Origin: Microgenomates group bacterium
Lineage (GTDB): Bacteria; Patescibacteriota; Microgenomatia; UBA12405
DNA: 64,000 nucleotides
NCBI GenBank assembly: GCA_049303675.1
Contig: JBAQNJ010000001.1
Span: 199,494 to 263,493 of the forward strand
Direction of reading: 5' to 3'
Numbering within the stretch: the first letter of the stretch is position 1; the number at the start of each line of letters is the position of its first letter. Shown piece by piece: positions 6,376-12,269 of the stretch. The notes under the pieces are model-generated. The model ran no database searches. It worked only from the letters and a program-made list of their open reading frames with translations, and was not told where the DNA came from. The position numbers and the translations under genes were made by a program.

Positions 6376-6609
6376 CTAGTTTTCTTTAGTTACTTCACTC
6401 ACACCCTCTTTTGTTACCACGTACAAGACAACTTTTGGACCTTTTTTTAATCCCAATTTTGTTACCAAATTTGCTTTAGGGTCACCTGTGGCAAACCCAA
6501 TACCCAATTGCGGCTCCAGAGAAACCCTCCCAATTATTGGGAGTTGTCCACTGATTGCCAGTTGAGTCAGGTTGTTTGGGTATAAAAAATCGCTTCTTCT
6601 GTCTACCAT
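6376..6609 (-). CDS. hypothetical protein (77 aa)
   Basis: ORF only. Confidence 0.3.
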   Translation of the reverse strand: MVDRRSDFLYPNNLTQLAISGQLPIIGRVSLEPQLGIGFATGDPKANLVTKLGLKKGPKVVLYVVTKEGVSEVTKEN

Positions 6610-6639
6610 AAAATATTATTTCAGCTATCCAACCCTAAA

Positions 6640-8418
6640 TTATATACCTTCTAGCTCATTTTGCCAAGTCCGAATCAATTCAAACCCATCTTTCCAAAAC
6701 TTTTCATCCCCCATATCTACTCCCACTTTTTTGAGTACCTCATCCGGTGCCATCGATCCGCCAGCCGCCAGTACTTCTTCAATTTTTGTGACAAACTTTT
6801 TACCTTCTTTTTTATAGCGTGAGTAGAGGGATAGTGACAGCAATTCTCCAAAATTGTAGGCATAACAATAAAAAGGGGATTCAAAAAAATGGCTCACATA
6901 CAGCCATTCATATTTAAATATCGGATCAATTTTCATTGATGTTCCAAATTGTTCTTTTAGATTTTTGAGGTATGCCTCACTCAGGTCTTTAGCAGTTGTG
7001 CCTTTACTAATCATTTCATGCGCCTGCTTTTCAAACATTACAAAATAGCTTTGCCGCAGAATTGTGGCATACGACTCGCCAATTTTTTCCGCCAGCATTT
7101 CCTTTCTTGCTTTTTTATCTTTTTCCTCTCGCAGCATTTTTTCAAACAATATTAGTTCCCCCAGTGTCGAGGCAGTTTCCGATAGCGGTAGATTGGCGTG
7201 CTGCGGTCCAGCATAATGATGGTTCGCATACAGGCTGTGCACCGCATGGCCTAGTTCATGGGCCAGTGTCGACACATCTCGGCTGGTTCCAGTATAATTT
7301 AATAGTACGTATGGAGTATATTTTGGCCCAACCGTGGCACAAAACGCCCCACTTCTTTTATTGGGAGTCGGGTGTGAATCTATATGTTTTTCCTCCATTA
7401 CTTTTTTTGCCTCCGCCGCAAATCTAGTTGAAAAAGTCGCAAACGCCTCCAATACCATTTTTTTGGCTTCATTAAACTTTATAACTTTATGAACTTTATT
7501 AACTTTCAAACTTACTGGCGCATATAAATCAAATCTACTCAATTTCTTCACTCTAAGTAATTTTGCCTTGTATTCAAAATATCTCCAAAATACTTTTCTT
7601 TCTTCTTTGCAGACTCGCAGTAGTGTCTCAATAGCTTCATCGGGTACATGATTCCCAAAATTACGCACCTCAATTGGGCTCTGGTAGCCTCTAAATTTAG
7701 CTTCAAACGCCCAGTCCTTGACTACCGCCTGATAAATTACCAAAAATTTATCAATATTTTCCTTATGTTTATTTAGTAACGATCTATATGCCCCTTCTCT
7801 TAGCTTCGGACTCTTGTCATGGACATATTTTAGTAGTTCAGCTTGGCTTTTGATTTTTTTCTTACCCAGTTGATACACAAAATCAGCTTCAATCAGGCCT
7901 CTTAGGTCGCTTATCGCCCCGCCACCATTGATATCTTTATTGTCAATTATTTCTTCTTCCCGTTGGCTGAGGGTATATTTGGCCGCCATCCGTCCATAAT
8001 TCATTCCGTATTCTAGGTCGGGGATTGCTTTAAATAGTCGCTTGGCATTATCATCACCCAGAGTTTCCTTGCCTTCCACTGGTAGTCCCTTTAGCCAATG
8101 GCCAATCTTGCGGCTAGTTTGGTTAAATTTTAGGGCTAGGTCCGTTGCTTTTGAGTTCATTAGTCGGGCAGTAGCGTCTTTTTGGTTTACGCAGTCCATT
8201 AGTGAGGGGAGGTACATGAGACAGGAGAACTTTTCGTCTAGGGTTTCGTCATATTCCATAAATTCAGCGAACTCTTTTACACTCATGGTCGGGCTAAGTC
8301 TAGTCCACCATTTTTCTACCATGGCGATATTTCCATCCAATTCAGTGAGCATTTTATCAAAATCTTCCACTCTGCCCAGTTCCCTCAAATCCCATTTTTC
8401 TGCTTCATTTTTGGCCAT
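6640..8418 (-). CDS. pepF: oligoendopeptidase F (M3B zinc metallopeptidase)
   Basis: HELGH zinc motif (TLAHELGHAVHS). The length (592 aa) and overall pattern match PepF. Confidence 0.9.
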   Translation of the reverse strand: MAKNEAEKWDLRELGRVEDFDKMLTELDGNIAMVEKWWTRLSPTMSVKEFAEFMEYDETLDEKFSCLMYLPSLMDCVNQKDATARLMNSKATDLALKFNQTSRKIGHWLKGLPVEGKETLGDDNAKRLFKAIPDLEYGMNYGRMAAKYTLSQREEEIIDNKDINGGGAISDLRGLIEADFVYQLGKKKIKSQAELLKYVHDKSPKLREGAYRSLLNKHKENIDKFLVIYQAVVKDWAFEAKFRGYQSPIEVRNFGNHVPDEAIETLLRVCKEERKVFWRYFEYKAKLLRVKKLSRFDLYAPVSLKVNKVHKVIKFNEAKKMVLEAFATFSTRFAAEAKKVMEEKHIDSHPTPNKRSGAFCATVGPKYTPYVLLNYTGTSRDVSTLAHELGHAVHSLYANHHYAGPQHANLPLSETASTLGELILFEKMLREEKDKKARKEMLAEKIGESYATILRQSYFVMFEKQAHEMISKGTTAKDLSEAYLKNLKEQFGTSMKIDPIFKYEWLYVSHFFESPFYCYAYNFGELLSLSLYSRYKKEGKKFVTKIEEVLAAGGSMAPDEVLKKVGVDMGDEKFWKDGFELIRTWQNELEGI

Positions 8419-8463
8419 GCACTATTGTATCTCAACCACTGTCAATTTAGTTACCCCATAATA

Positions 8464-8492
8464 TTGACTTTTGACCTAAATTATCCTATAAT
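8464..8492 (+). promoter_or_regulatory. sigma70-like promoter (TTGACT, 17 nt spacer, TATAAT) about 270 nt upstream of the lipoprotein gene
   Basis: Seen directly: TTGACTtttgacctaaattatccTATAAT. This implies a long 5' UTR. Confidence 0.45.
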
Positions 8493-8758
8493 GGTCGCCA
8501 GAGTAAATACACACAAAAGACACACAATCGCTGTGAGTTGTTTTGGATATTTACAGTTCTTTAACAATTCAAGAGTATATAAAAAAGCCAAAAGCTGTGG
8601 TGCACTTAGGATTGAACCTGCTTTAGTTCATTTCTGTGCGCACTACAGCTTTATTTTGTAGGCACCCACCCCAACCCAGACCAAGGAGGTCAATCTAGTA
8701 AAAATGTAATAAAAAATTATTTAAAACGTCGTCAAAATAATATTCACAGGAGATAAAA

Positions 8759-10558
8759 ATGAAAACCCGAAATTTGTTCGCGAAAGGTACAATCTTGTGC
8801 CTCGTAGCCGTGTTACTTCTAACCAGTTGTGGTGTTGTTGGACCTGCCCTGCCTCTTCGGTCGGATATGCCGACTCAGGGTTTAGAAAATGTGGTTACCT
8901 ACAAATTGAACGGCCCAGCCGGTACTGAAAAAGAAGTCAATATCGCCGAAATGCGAGGAGTCAATGATAATTCGCCAATGATGAAACTCCAAACCATATT
9001 CGGAAAACTTTCTGGATCAAAAACTCAAGACAGCTTAATCACCCTTCCCAGCGGAGTCCCAGTTCGCGCCCTTGGCATGAACAAGATCAAGCGATTCGCA
9101 GGCCTGACAAAGTTTATGACACTTGAACCGGCGACATACCATGCGGTTGATGCACAAGGAAACTGTTTTGCAGGCATCAAGGTAAGACTAGATTTCAACC
9201 GCAATGTTGCCCAGCTGCTTGCCAGTAAGCCAGACTTCGACTATTCCAGTCTCTGGTATTACGATGCTGCATGTATCGTTGAAGCCAACGGCGAGGTAAA
9301 AATTGATATTGACCACGCAAGGCTTCGTGCAGTTGTCCTCAACGAGGTGTGGCAATTCCGACTTACAGCCGGTCCTTGGTTCTATAACTGGGGACACAGT
9401 GTCACCATTATTCCAGGCAACAAGCTTAGTGGGTTACCCGTGCGCTGGTGGGAAAAGTTTGACTATCCCAACACTGACGCTGATGCTATGGGTGCCGCTG
9501 CAATAATGAATTACCTCATTGGTGATTTATCTACCGGTGCCCAGCCATGGCTTGAGTTCAGTCCACTTGGCGAATTCAGTGATTCCTATTTGGTTTACAG
9601 CGCTGGAGATGCTGACCAATATGCCAATTGGGATCGTGTATTACTCGATCGCCAACAACAATACGTTGTCATGTATCGACCCAACAATTTGACAGCGTGG
9701 GATTGGATTACGATTAAGCCCATATACAACTACGAGTGGAACGATGTTACCCAGAACTTGTCCAAGTTCCATGGATGGACTGGCGATATCTTCAAAGACA
9801 AAATTGACGAACGTGGTCTTCCCAAAGATCCACGCGACAGTGTCATCAGCGAAGTTGAAAGAATCGGCTGGATGAATGGGCCAAATGCATCTTTAGCGCA
9901 GATTCAATATATCGGCCGCGAAGGTCAGATTCTCTATACCCAAACCATTCGTGCATACATTGGCGCCAAGGACACTCTGGTTATGTTTGGACCGGGTCAA
10001 CCAATGTATTCCGAAGCGAAGAAAAATGCTGTCAATCAAGATGGTTTGCAATATCCTTGGGCCTACGATGATAATGGCCAGCCTATCGCGAATCCGCCGA
10101 TGACACAGGATCAGTGGGTGCAGTTGCAGCAGGAAGGATCAATGTGGAACTATCTCAAGGGAGATAATCCGTTTAATTCCGACCTGTTTATTCAATATCG
10201 TTTTACTGACGATACAACCTGGCGCCCAATAACCTGCTCCGACTCAGATGGCAACAGCTATACCTGTGGTTGGAACCCTGTTGACTGGAATCTTGACTCC
10301 ACCTATTTCTTCCAGGGTAATGTGGATAAACCATGGTATATAACACAGTTACTCGGAGAAGTGGGGATGCGCACACTGGGCATGAGCTATAATTCATGTC
10401 TTTACTGCGGCACTGGAATGGAATTTGCTATGGATCAGATGAAATTCCATAGTGATTACTTCACCGGTTTTACCCAGGAATCTGTGTGGATGTTTGATGC
10501 TCGCGCTATGCAGCTTCCCGACAGTCTCGCTATATCATGGGCCAAAGTACATCAATAA
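8759..10558 (+). CDS. large secreted lipoprotein (599 aa, Trp/Tyr-rich) of unknown function. It has locally higher GC than the surrounding DNA.
   Basis: Signal peptide plus lipobox (LLTSCG). There is a good RBS (caggagataaaaATG). The composition is visibly more GC-rich than the flanks. Confidence 0.75.
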   Translation: MKTRNLFAKGTILCLVAVLLLTSCGVVGPALPLRSDMPTQGLENVVTYKLNGPAGTEKEVNIAEMRGVNDNSPMMKLQTIFGKLSGSKTQDSLITLPSGVPVRALGMNKIKRFAGLTKFMTLEPATYHAVDAQGNCFAGIKVRLDFNRNVAQLLASKPDFDYSSLWYYDAACIVEANGEVKIDIDHARLRAVVLNEVWQFRLTAGPWFYNWGHSVTIIPGNKLSGLPVRWWEKFDYPNTDADAMGAAAIMNYLIGDLSTGAQPWLEFSPLGEFSDSYLVYSAGDADQYANWDRVLLDRQQQYVVMYRPNNLTAWDWITIKPIYNYEWNDVTQNLSKFHGWTGDIFKDKIDERGLPKDPRDSVISEVERIGWMNGPNASLAQIQYIGREGQILYTQTIRAYIGAKDTLVMFGPGQPMYSEAKKNAVNQDGLQYPWAYDDNGQPIANPPMTQDQWVQLQQEGSMWNYLKGDNPFNSDLFIQYRFTDDTTWRPITCSDSDGNSYTCGWNPVDWNLDSTYFFQGNVDKPWYITQLLGEVGMRTLGMSYNSCLYCGTGMEFAMDQMKFHSDYFTGFTQESVWMFDARAMQLPDSLAISWAKVHQ

Positions 10559-10601
10559 TATGCTCTTGAATCCTCTTCTGGATTCTTCCACTAACAAAAA
10601 T

Positions 10602-10624
10602 GGGTCAGGCTAAAGCCTGACCCA
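10602..10624 (+). terminator. perfect 9-bp hairpin (gggtcaggc-taaa-gcctgaccc) 44 nt after the lipoprotein stop, with no U-tract
   Basis: Seen directly. Confidence 0.35.
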
Positions 10625-10644
10625 TCGCGGGAGAATCTGGAAGT

Positions 10645-10711
10645 TGTTGTATCCCGATTTATCGGGGCTGATGAGTTCTCGACTGGGTCAACCAGTCGGA
10701 ACGAAACAACA
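10645..10711 (+). ncRNA. type III hammerhead self-cleaving ribozyme
   Basis: The motif is present in order. Stem III 5' strand TGTTGT, then H17=A (GUA cleavage triplet). Stem I TCCCGA-TTTA-TCGGGG. C3UGAUGA9 at 10668-10674. Stem II GTTC(T)CGACTGG-GTCAA-CCAGTCGGAAC with the G10.1/C11.1 pair. G12A13A14 at 10703-10705. A15.1 then the stem III 3' strand ACAACA. All invariant core positions are present. Confidence 0.8.
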
Positions 10712-11018
10712 CTTAACAATCTATCGTTCTGATTTTATTCTATTTTTAAAATCATCTCCTTTCCACAACACACCATCGTCCCTCCTCCCACATTTGTCAC
10801 CATCACTTCATTTCCACACACACTACAATAAAATTTCTCACCAACCTTAGTAACACTCATAAACTAAAATTAACTAATAACTAAACAGATTATAAATCTA
10901 AACAAAATAGTTCACCTCGCCAAAGTCATGAGCTCGTCGATTGACGGCGGCGGGCCAACCTTAGTTACAGCCATAGTTATTTTAATTAGTAATCTAATTA
11001 ATATTCTTATTTTTCAAA

Positions 11019-11058
11019 CCCTCCTTGTCAAGGGAGGGTACTCCGAAAGCTTTCGGAG
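11019..11058 (-). terminator. two adjacent perfect hairpins (ccctcc-ttgtcaag-ggaggg and ctccgaaag/ctttcggag) at the 3' end of the toxin-antitoxin operon
   Basis: Seen directly. The minus-strand reading has a weak T-run after hairpin 1. Confidence 0.4.
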
Positions 11059-11073
11059 CGGGTGGGTTTAGTT

Positions 11074-11343
11074 CTAAAACTGTTTATAAATATCGTGTGA
11101 TCCCACAGAGTGAAACCAAATTGTATTCTCGTCTCCAAATTCAAATATAATTCTAATCTGTCTATTGATTGAAAACGACCAAAACCCATGCAATTTGTTT
11201 TGCAGAGCATGAGTTTTTAGTCTCGGGTCATGGGGATTTTTTCTAAATATCTTTTCCTTTTCTTCCGCCATTCTCTTTATTTCTGGAGATAATCTTTTAT
11301 ATTCCCTTACAAATTTCGATGAATAATATATATCCACCACCAA
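11074..11343 (-). CDS. type II toxin, RelE/ParE family
   Basis: KLHGFWSFSINRQIRIIFEF...IWFHSVGSHDIYK fits the RelE/ParE core pattern (R..Y.. / G.H.D.Y). The gene sits immediately downstream of the antitoxin. Confidence 0.75.
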   Translation of the reverse strand: MVVDIYYSSKFVREYKRLSPEIKRMAEEKEKIFRKNPHDPRLKTHALQNKLHGFWSFSINRQIRIIFEFGDENTIWFHSVGSHDIYKQF

Positions 11344-11577
11344 TTATCGCAAATCTGCCAGACTCTTCAATAGTGTACCCTTGCCTGCCTTTAGTTGTTT
11401 TTGGCTTGCCTTCAATTCACTCAGTAATTGATTTTTAGACCAATCCCTTATCAAGTTTCGGAAAAATTCACTTTTTGTGGCATAACCACCGCTTTTTACA
11501 GCCTTGTTTACCACTGTTGCCATCTGGCTAGGTAGAGATATGTTTACTATTGTCCTCATGTCTATATTGTAACACAA
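11344..11577 (-). CDS. type II antitoxin, ParD/CopG ribbon-helix-helix family
   Basis: MRTIVNISLPSQMATVVNKAVKSGGYATKSEFFRNLIRDW is a typical RHH antitoxin N-terminus. The true start is probably MRT at about 11559. Confidence 0.7.
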   Translation of the reverse strand: MCYNIDMRTIVNISLPSQMATVVNKAVKSGGYATKSEFFRNLIRDWSKNQLLSELKASQKQLKAGKGTLLKSLADLR

Positions 11578-11654
11578 ATTACATACAAAGTGTTACAGCA
11601 TGTTTTTTATTAACTATTAATTTGAAATTCGTAATTTTTAATTATTAATTAATT

Positions 11655-12269
11655 CTACCTCCACCTCTTTTTTATTTCCTCTTTTTCTCCAGTTTCTAGT
11701 TTCCAGTTTCCAGTTTCTTGCCCTCTCTGTCTCTCTACCTCCCACAACACTATCCCCGCACTTACCGACAAATTTAGACTCTGCACCATCCCTCTCATCG
11801 GAATATATATTTTTGCATCTGCTCCATCTATTGCTTCTTGGGTCACTCCTCGATGTTCATTCCCAAACACTATTGCTATTTTTTTCTGAGATCTGAAATC
11901 TGACAAACTGAGATCTACCGCCTCTTTATCCAATACTGTTACATAAATTTTGTAACCTTCATTTTTCAGCATCTCATAGCATTCCTTTGTCGACTTAAAT
12001 ATCTTAAAATCCAGCCATTTGTTGGCCGAACTCGACGATACTTTTCCCACTTTCTTCGGATTAAACACCTTCTCTTGTTCAAAAATTAGATACACTTTTT
12101 GCCAGCCCATAGCATCACAGTTTCGCCACACCGCCGCCGCATTATGCGGGTCATGAATATCCTGCAGTACCACCACTCCCTCCCTCCTTTGATCTATAAC
12201 CTTATTTAATTTTCCTTGCCTCGCCGTAGTTTCTAACGTAGGCGGGCCTTGCCTTGTTGGTGCTTTCAT
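11655..12269 (-). CDS. trmH: SpoU/TrmH-family RNA 2'-O-methyltransferase
   Basis: Family motifs present: HDPHNAAAVWRNCDAMG, IVFGNEHRGV and SLNLSVSAGIVL. The C-terminal ~25 aa of the ORF run into a CAGTTTC repeat, so the real stop is probably earlier. Confidence 0.8.
   Translation of the reverse strand: MKAPTRQGPPTLETTARQGKLNKVIDQRREGVVVLQDIHDPHNAAAVWRNCDAMGWQKVYLIFEQEKVFNPKKVGKVSSSSANKWLDFKIFKSTKECYEMLKNEGYKIYVTVLDKEAVDLSLSDFRSQKKIAIVFGNEHRGVTQEAIDGADAKIYIPMRGMVQSLNLSVSAGIVLWEVERQRGQETGNWKLETGEKEEIKKRWR
11688..11740 (+). repeat. CAGTTTC-type degenerate tandem heptamer block (copy B, same orientation as A)
   Basis: tctccagtttctagtttccagtttccagtttcttgccctctctgtctctc. Confidence 0.5.

Follow-up and report, generated by a model that had tools for sequence, protein, structure and literature searches.

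A predicted type III hammerhead ribozyme follows a lipoprotein gene of the candidate phyla radiation and may, with an adjacent hairpin, make the 3′ end of its message

Hammerhead ribozymes cleave RNA to leave 2′,3′-cyclic phosphate and 5′-OH ends. Within messenger RNA (mRNA), the mammalian Clec2 hammerhead in a 3′ untranslated region (UTR) and the glmS ribozyme, which lies in a 5′ UTR and depends on a ligand, lower expression because cleavage opens the message to decay, while engineered ribozyme insulators such as RiboJ are artificial and usually stand at the 5′ end. Thousands of hammerheads are known in bacteria, mostly phage-linked, and their role has been called open (PMC6155905); those described are mainly linked to prophages and often clustered around small open reading frames (ORFs) (PMC6155905, PMC3088659). 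Here we describe a predicted type III hammerhead at positions 10645–10711 of a 64,000-nucleotide (nt) stretch of DNA from a Microgenomates group bacterium (GenBank assembly GCA_049303675.1, contig JBAQNJ010000001.1, positions 199,494 to 263,493; this whole stretch is referred to as the window), which lies past the stop codon of a predicted lipoprotein gene whose relatives are found across the candidate phyla radiation (CPR). On balance, we think it probable that the element is a functional ribozyme in the 3′ UTR of the lipoprotein mRNA and that, together with a long hairpin at 10575–10643, it forms a module that makes the 3′ end of this message.

Like the prophage hammerheads, the ribozyme at this locus is DNA-encoded, intergenic and a presumed cutter of a longer transcript into gene-length pieces (PMC3088659, PMC6155905). 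It differs from them in having no prophage context, in occurring once per locus (once in the 64 kb of the window) where theirs often cluster, and in being tied to one conserved cellular gene family across CPR bacteria, where a hairpin invariably adjoins it upstream and intrinsic terminators stand in for it at other loci. As single-copy, DNA-encoded elements of a chromosomal 3′ UTR, the hammerheads of lipoprotein loci are also unlike the tandem or multimeric units of replicating RNA. Neither PMC3088659 nor PMC6155905 mentions a hammerhead placed in this way with respect to a conserved cellular gene, a hairpin and alternating terminators, and the word "terminator" is absent from PMC3088659. In the open-access literature we found no paper that joins hammerheads with CPR, Patescibacteria, Saccharibacteria or Microgenomates, nor one that joins them with intrinsic terminators in bacterial mRNAs or with terminator replacement, such absence being weak evidence. 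The ribozyme class is known, and its gene-specific 3′ context appears to be undescribed. The parts of the proposed module in the window are listed below (aa, amino acids; bp, base pairs; GC, guanine-cytosine fraction).

8759..10558, + strand: predicted lipoprotein gene, 599 aa, with a signal peptide and lipobox LTSC, a nearly invariant Cys24 and a GC of 0.468
10575..10643, + strand: long hairpin, with an outer stem of 15 bp (10575–10589/10629–10643) around an 11-bp hairpin (10600–10610/10615–10625, loop UAAA)
10645..10711, + strand: type III hammerhead ribozyme motif, called from invariant positions, fold, descriptor, Rfam alignment and covariation
10645–10650/10706–10711, + strand: hammerhead stem III, 6 bp
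A10651, + strand: hammerhead H17, the non-G nucleotide at the cleavage site
10651..10652, + strand: predicted self-cleavage site, A10651/U10652, placed by the hammerhead numbering
10652–10657/10662–10667, + strand: hammerhead stem I, 6 bp including U-G at 1.1-2.1, loop UUUA
10668–10674, + strand: hammerhead core CUGAUGA (CTGATGA in DNA), C3 to A9
10675–10686/10692–10702, + strand: hammerhead stem II, 11 bp with bulged U10679, loop GUCAA
10703–10705, + strand: hammerhead G12 A13 A14 (GAA), between stems II and III

Read directly, the letters of 10645–10711 (+) are TGTTGT / A / TCCCGA-TTTA-TCGGGG / CTGATGA / GTTC(T)CGACTGG-GTCAA-CCAGTCGGAAC / GAA / ACAACA. An earlier note made from the same DNA (the original prediction) had claimed that all invariant hammerhead positions are present, and direct reading agrees: stem II is closed by the G10.1-C11.1 pair (G10675-C10702), the A15.1-U16.1 pair is U10650-A10706, H17 is A and the cleavage triplet is GUA. 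Its lengths of 6, 11 and 6 bp for stems I, II and III were likewise borne out, with the bulged U10679 in stem II. Loops cap stems I and II and the open ends lie in stem III, the topology of a type III ribozyme. The motif starts 86 nt past the lipoprotein stop (10558) and the predicted cleavage site lies 93 nt past it, a distance that had been given correctly. When 10560–10730 was folded with RNAfold, the three-way junction was both the minimum free energy (MFE) structure and the centroid (z = −6.6), with helix probabilities of 0.77–0.97 for the hammerhead stems. In prefix folding, the hammerhead was the MFE structure at every prefix from 10711 to about 10761. A descriptor search of both strands of the window returned one type III hammerhead, at 10645–10711, and first-order Markov shuffles put the chance expectation at 0.06 per 64 kb for stems of at least 3/3/3 bp and at 0 in 150 for stems of at least 4/4/4 bp. 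Because the real stems measure 6/11/6 bp, set against 0.06 expected at the loosest 3/3/3-bp setting, a chance origin of the motif is excluded. By every sequence and structure criterion that could be applied, the Rfam score cutoff excepted, the element classes as a type III hammerhead, and catalysis is predicted.

We obtained the DNA around homologous genes by exact-protein look-ups and family-based scans of genome and metagenome collections. One contig holding the exact protein (L001) was 100% identical to the window over 601 aligned bases and has no comparative value. Using the descriptor, followed by a family covariance model built from six compact copies (R1), we found type III hammerheads in eight distinct loci, namely the window, L011/L012, L013, L019, L027, L034, L035/L036 and L043. 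All eight place the ribozyme on the strand of the lipoprotein gene, 59–137 nt past its stop, and the homologs at these loci span protein identities of 38–100% and include both Microgenomates-type and Saccharibacteria-type proteins. No other credible hammerhead (R1, E < 1e-3) was found on either strand of ~410 kb of lipoprotein-homolog loci; five further homolog contexts (L066–L071) had no hammerhead, and the hammerhead-free loci had no other ribozyme class at the same position at Rfam gathering scores.

The core from C3 to A9 is shared by all eight intact relatives, N7 being U (C in L013), and GAA is invariant in the model-based alignment (A5), which we used because MAFFT misplaced the window copy owing to its stem II insertion. 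H17 is A, C or U in all copies; as the descriptor demanded a non-G nucleotide there, only the copies found by the model test this independently. Stem sequences differ among loci with pairing retained: 92.7% of cells are paired, a value inflated somewhat by the fitting of the alignment to R1, and 15 of 18 pairs have changed on both sides. None of 500 shuffles reached these values, and slid partners were 34–47% paired. The G10.1-C11.1 and U16.1-A15.1 pairs are invariant in 9 of 9 sequences. The original prediction had tied its call to conservation in related genomes, and this was found, in eight loci with helices kept through compensatory changes; the type III assignment is also upheld by the core positions and by a full-length alignment to the Rfam Hammerhead_3 model. 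In a rough neighbour-joining tree of the proteins, from which L043 was left off because its protein is partial, the hammerhead loci fell into two clades (window, L011 and L013; L019, L034 and L035) with L027 as a distant Saccharibacteria-type locus, and hammerhead-free loci were nested among them. The genes downstream vary in identity and orientation: they converge on the lipoprotein gene in the window and L027 and run in its direction in L013, L034, L035 and L043. Since they differ between loci, what stays constant beside the ribozyme is the upstream gene with its hairpin.

The hairpin just before the motif, described in the original prediction as lacking a U-tract, is indeed present at 10575–10643. 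It is more stable than any of 200 shuffles (z = −7.2), stops 1 nt short of hammerhead stem III and 8 nt short of the cleavage site, and has no U-tract behind it on the + strand. The same arrangement recurs at all eight loci, each with a long, often branched hairpin that lacks a U-tract and ends 1–9 nt before the cleavage site (z = −4.3 to −11.0; 0 of 200 shuffles as stable at each). Most hammerhead-free relatives in the close clade carry instead the classical intrinsic terminator, a comparably long hairpin with a U-tract behind it, no more than about 100 nt past the stop. We scored terminators with a home-made rule, a heuristic of our own (a run of 4 or more T, with 5 or more T among 8 nt, at most 3 nt from a helix of at least 5 bp with a free energy of −10 or lower). 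In the close clade, 14 of 18 hammerhead-free loci had such a terminator, and 1 of 7 hammerhead loci had one ahead of the ribozyme (Fisher P = 0.007; P = 0.05 over all 43 distinct loci). Shared ancestry makes these counts non-independent, and the P values, uncorrected for phylogeny, are descriptive only. At one locus (L023), a canonical terminator (GGGCGG-TTTTTT) stands downstream of the lipoprotein homolog and is followed by a decayed hammerhead at 1362–1418, whose core reads CTAATGA (G5 to A) and whose stem I is lost. A G5 to A change abolishes catalysis in hammerheads, and the sequence pattern at L023 is what would be expected once a terminator makes the ribozyme redundant.

Two further elements were seen in these 3′ UTRs. 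Several hammerhead-free 3′ UTRs share a motif, TCCGCAGA(T), no more than about 15 nt from the stop and ahead of a terminator hairpin beginning GCAA(G/A)A (L014 4906–4920, L066 2297–2310, L017 2835–2845, L064/L065 and L039), and this motif is a conserved 3′-UTR element. The branched hairpins before the hammerheads of L013 (6797–6895) and L043 (1004–1113) have sequence blocks in common (CAGGATGAGGA ... CACCGACTCNGTCGGAA), and the 3′-UTR hairpin of these two loci may itself be a conserved structured RNA.

That the ribozyme may define the 3′ end of the lipoprotein transcript had been suggested before, and comparison favours this role: the ribozyme travels with the 3′ end of the gene, follows a hairpin and alternates with terminators. 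In the mechanism that we propose, RNA polymerase would pass through the hairpin, since no U-tract stands behind it on the + strand, and the hammerhead would fold co-transcriptionally and then cut itself after A10651. The lipoprotein mRNA would be left with a stable hairpin and an 8-nt tail, UUGUUGUA, ending in a 2′,3′-cyclic phosphate. Stable 3′ hairpin ends should resist decay by bacterial 3′ exonucleases, and the end so made would be exonuclease-resistant in the way of one left by an intrinsic terminator. The read-through RNA, which in the window is antisense to a desulforedoxin-like gene and a toxin-antitoxin operon, would be detached with a 5′-OH, and the mRNA would no longer be coupled to the sequence beyond. 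The data show the motif, the predicted fold, its conservation with covariation behind homologous genes, the adjoining hairpin and the alternation with terminators; that the RNA cleaves itself in the cell, that its 3′ end is protected and what becomes of the detached RNA are inferred.

Like intrinsic (Rho-independent) terminators, the module occupies the same place relative to the stop in orthologous loci, and its expected product is a hairpin with a short tail. Unlike them, it has no + strand U-tract, and its end would arise by self-cleavage after read-through, carrying a 2′,3′-cyclic phosphate in place of a 3′-OH while the polymerase carries on. By this analogy, hairpin and hammerhead would form a functional analogue of an intrinsic terminator, not a member of the class. 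More tentatively, and with rather less than even confidence, we suggest that the CPR cassette of hairpin and hammerhead is a protein-independent alternative to intrinsic termination, evolutionarily interchangeable with hairpin and U-tract at the same gene. The module shares with the Clec2 hammerhead and glmS the placing of a self-cleaving ribozyme, acting in cis, within an mRNA untranslated region; unlike in those systems, the cleavage site here follows a protective hairpin, which predicts stabilisation or insulation. With RiboJ-type insulators it shares the pairing of a hammerhead-type ribozyme with a hairpin so that transcript ends become context-independent, and it would be a natural 3′ counterpart of these. 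If the proposal is true, a housekeeping role serving a conserved chromosomal gene would be defined for the first time for a bacterial hammerhead, which would act as a natural 3′ "ribozyme insulator". The hypothesis, that the ribozyme gives the message a hairpin-protected 3′ end and insulates it from its downstream context, is specific and cheap to test, and the related loci supply natural positive, negative and decayed comparators.

The points that weigh against this proposal concern the scores of the window copy, its stem II, its fold in longer transcripts and the patchiness of the pattern across loci. In core, in a junction open at stem III, in the G10.1-C11.1 and A15.1-U16.1 pairs and in their NUH triplet, these ribozymes resemble the type III hammerheads of Rfam family RF00008 (Hammerhead_3), which come from viroids, satellite RNAs, plants and some bacteria. 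They differ from its members in score, and the window copy differs in its 11-bp bulged stem II, theirs being a short capped helix. In a 77-nt search the window copy aligned end to end with model positions 1–54 at 27.3 bits (E = 1.6e-4), under the gathering score of 48.5 bits, which is a curation cutoff and no biochemical feature. The original prediction had proposed a covariance-model scan and held that a score below threshold would count against it; the full-length alignment speaks for the prediction and the score, formally, against it. Rfam returned no hammerhead in a 551-nt scan at E ≤ 10, nor in the whole window at gathering scores. The reading that no Rfam match means no ribozyme was rejected, the 77-nt scan having brought out the sub-threshold alignment.

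Most of the low score is the cost of the long stem II. The L019 copy is sub-threshold as well (40.7 bits), and no hammerhead reached the Rfam gathering score in 40 related loci. Because the sister copies are sub-threshold yet clearly conserved, the low score reflects the model and not the motif. For the same reason, routine annotation misses these ribozymes, and CPR genomes probably hold more unannotated copies. With default filters cmsearch missed the window copy; R1 picked it up, by way of the identical L001, only once the filters were switched off (24.5 bits, E = 4.6e-4 in 56 kb). Among its relatives the window copy stands apart by its stem II, which has 11 bp and a bulge where all the others have 4 bp and a tetra- or pentaloop. 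The compact relatives have a stem I of 7 bp with a 3–4-nt loop and a stem II of 4 bp with an AAAA/GAAA loop, a geometry that fits a contact between loop 1 and loop 2, and the window stem II extends beyond that point. A loop 1-loop 2 contact is what makes natural hammerheads fast at cellular Mg2+, and because stem II is elongated the usual contact may be lost or altered in the window copy, in which no Watson-Crick complementarity between the loops was seen by eye. As far as the sequence allows a judgement, the bulged U10679 occupies the place that loop 2 has in the compact relatives and could stand in for the contact.

It is on these features that a different account of the window copy turns, namely that it is a catalytically dead or very slow relic, its tertiary contact broken by the long stem II, with the 3′ end made otherwise, for example by weak termination at the hairpin and UUGUUGU. 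Its scores are the lowest of the family, its 11-bp bulged stem II is unique, and the hairpin has a U-rich tail, with U at 5 of 8 nt. We nevertheless consider this unlikely, since the positions of the catalytic core and the three helices are intact, unlike those of the decayed L023, stem II pairs perfectly over its 7 additional bp, the bulged U could replace the contact, and our terminator scan found no intrinsic terminator on the + strand in 8300–11700.

The predicted fold also depends on context. When the 3′ flank exceeds 60 nt, or the coding sequence is added, the equilibrium fold favours competitors by about 6.5 kcal/mol, in which the core and the 3′ strand of stem I at 10664–10676 (GGGGCUGAUGAG) pair with 10772–10782, ~100 nt downstream of the hammerhead core and within a small opposite-strand gene. 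Across loci, the hammerhead is present in just 8 of the 43 distinct ones with enough flank, many loci of the distant clade have neither hammerhead nor terminator, and L011, itself a hammerhead locus, may have a terminator-like site upstream as well. Finally, pattern scans of viral contigs brought out unrelated hammerheads and one true relative, at 6566–6620 (−) of L072 (IMGVR_UViG_3300027816_000524). This near-identical, compact type III hammerhead belongs to the same subfamily, scores 68.9 bits with R1 and lies ~20 nt upstream of an 85-aa ORF on a viral-labelled contig without a lipoprotein homolog; the ~450 nt upstream of it hold no ORF of at least 70 aa on its minus strand. Because this copy precedes an ORF and has no lipoprotein gene, the subfamily is not tied to a 3′-end role everywhere, and to judge from this contig it would also be used in the classical phage-like way.

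The L072 copy, together with the co-directional genes that start 12–173 nt after the ribozyme in L013, L034, L035 and L043, raises an alternative in which an active hammerhead serves the downstream side, trimming or insulating the 5′ end of the next transcript as in operon processing, with the upstream hairpin incidental. The idea has a precedent in the proposal of Perreault et al. 2011 (PMC3088659) that long transcripts are processed into gene-length mRNAs. Here it seems rather improbable, as the next gene is convergent in the window and L027, so that there is no downstream message to mature, the downstream genes are unrelated where the upstream gene and the adjacent hairpin are constant, and hammerhead-free relatives have a terminator at this position, not another processing site.

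The patchy occurrence (8 of 43 loci) could be that of a selfish or neutral passenger, for example a relic of phage or mobile RNA or DNA that brings no benefit to the lipoprotein gene and is patchily kept by descent; the relative on the phage contig, the general tie of bacterial hammerheads to phages (PMC6155905, PMC3088659) and the single decayed copy fit such a history. We regard it as distinctly improbable. Compensatory stem changes run across lineages whose proteins are 38–66% identical to the window protein, and the fixed position and strand relative to one gene, with the tight juxtaposition to the hairpin, argue for selection. The ribozyme occurs as a single copy per locus, with no repeats and no nearby integrase or phage genes, and a comparison with 50,697 phage records gave no DNA match for the RNA region and no protein match. 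Decay, moreover, is seen exactly where a terminator makes the ribozyme redundant (L023).

That the ribozyme lowers or regulates expression, its 3′-UTR cleavage destabilising the mRNA or being conditional, has precedents in ribozymes that reduce mRNA levels (Clec2, glmS) and could in principle use the core-sequestering pairing of 10664–10676 with 10772–10782 as a switch, and it is very unlikely, because in all eight loci the cut falls after and not before a very stable hairpin, so that the coding RNA keeps its protective 3′ structure, because the pairing partner lies in the coding sequence of the opposite-strand gene, and because no ligand-binding domain is apparent and no Rfam riboswitch matched.

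The upstream gene, to which the preferred 3′-end role is tied, belongs to a family of about 60 homologs at 35–81% identity, all from CPR bacteria (Microgenomates group, Shapiro-, Levy-, Woese- and Gottesmanbacteria, and Saccharibacteria), and from this distribution the family appears to be CPR-specific. An identical protein is annotated in a Microgenomates metagenome-assembled genome. We found no sequence relative of the family in Pfam, NCBIfam or the PDB. The AlphaFold model of the protein is confident (pLDDT, predicted local distance difference test, 82.5), and a fold-based function was dropped when Foldseek against the PDB gave only spurious beta-barrel matches (template modelling score ≤ 0.2). 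The gene had been described as higher in GC, and it is (0.468 vs 0.386 for the window). Homologous genes lie 5–19 GC points above their own flanks in nearly every genome checked, including L013 (0.567 vs 0.407), L021, L026 and L027 (0.633 vs 0.465). The GC excess is therefore a family-wide trait and no sign of recent acquisition. The suggestion that the ribozyme marks the edge of an acquired island was rejected on this ground, and also because the gene family is common among CPR bacteria, the flanks hold no phage or mobile genes, and the ribozyme keeps to the gene and not to a junction.

The remaining features around the locus are as follows (RHH, ribbon-helix-helix).

8464..8492, + strand: promoter-like site TTGACT-17-TATAAT, from a consensus scan only, 11/12 matches, ~270 nt before the lipoprotein start
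10599..10626, − strand: terminator-like site, the inner hairpin read on the minus strand and followed by TTTTTGTT; the sole such site in 8300–11700
10735..10860, − strand: desulforedoxin-like gene, 41 aa (CxxC...CC), MSVTKVGEKFYCSVCGNEVMVTNVGGGTMVCCGKEMILKIE, matching TIGR00319 at 34.8 bits and ending 24 nt from the motif
11074–11577, − strand: toxin-antitoxin pair, a YafQ/RelE-like toxin and an RHH antitoxin

By its sequence, the promoter-like site is a candidate for the start of the transcription unit that would end at the ribozyme. The inner hairpin can end transcripts of the minus strand only; those of the plus strand would be left for the ribozyme to cut shortly past it. The neighbours in the window are an M3 peptidase, the lipoprotein, the desulforedoxin-like gene, the toxin-antitoxin pair and a SpoU methylase, and no phage or mobile genes were found flanking the lipoprotein locus. 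A toxin-antitoxin module near the motif had been pointed out before and is there; the desulforedoxin-like gene had been overlooked and is added here, and because it lies on the minus strand and faces the lipoprotein gene, the hammerhead sits between convergent genes. The desulforedoxin-like gene belongs to the surroundings of the ribozyme module and not to the module itself. A 20-aa ORF, MAVTKVGPPPSIDELMTLAR, at 10912–10974 (−), lies ~50 nt upstream of the desulforedoxin-like gene and likewise starts with M-x-VTKVG; this ORF may be a leader or a truncated copy.

Several minor observations concern other contigs and another part of the window. A viral contig, L002 (IMGVR_UViG_3300001605_000031), carries at 1405–1466 a transfer RNA (tRNA)-like 3′ half (GGTTCGAATCC T-arm) fused directly to a hammerhead core (CTGACGAGTCCGAAAGGACGAAAC), with a second, weak hammerhead-like match at 1616–1677. 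Upstream of a lipoprotein homolog on a contig labelled Anaerolineaceae (L020), positions 117–264 match a group II intron domain (42.5 bits), and on a soil contig with a distant lipoprotein homolog (L059) positions 45–159 match the Actinobacteria small RNA Ms_IGR-7 (72.7 bits). In the window itself, between 40000 and 54000, GC skew climbs from about −0.25 to near 0 and GC falls to 0.33–0.37, and four of the six tRNA genes of the window lie within this region (47137, 51782, 52619 and 53509).

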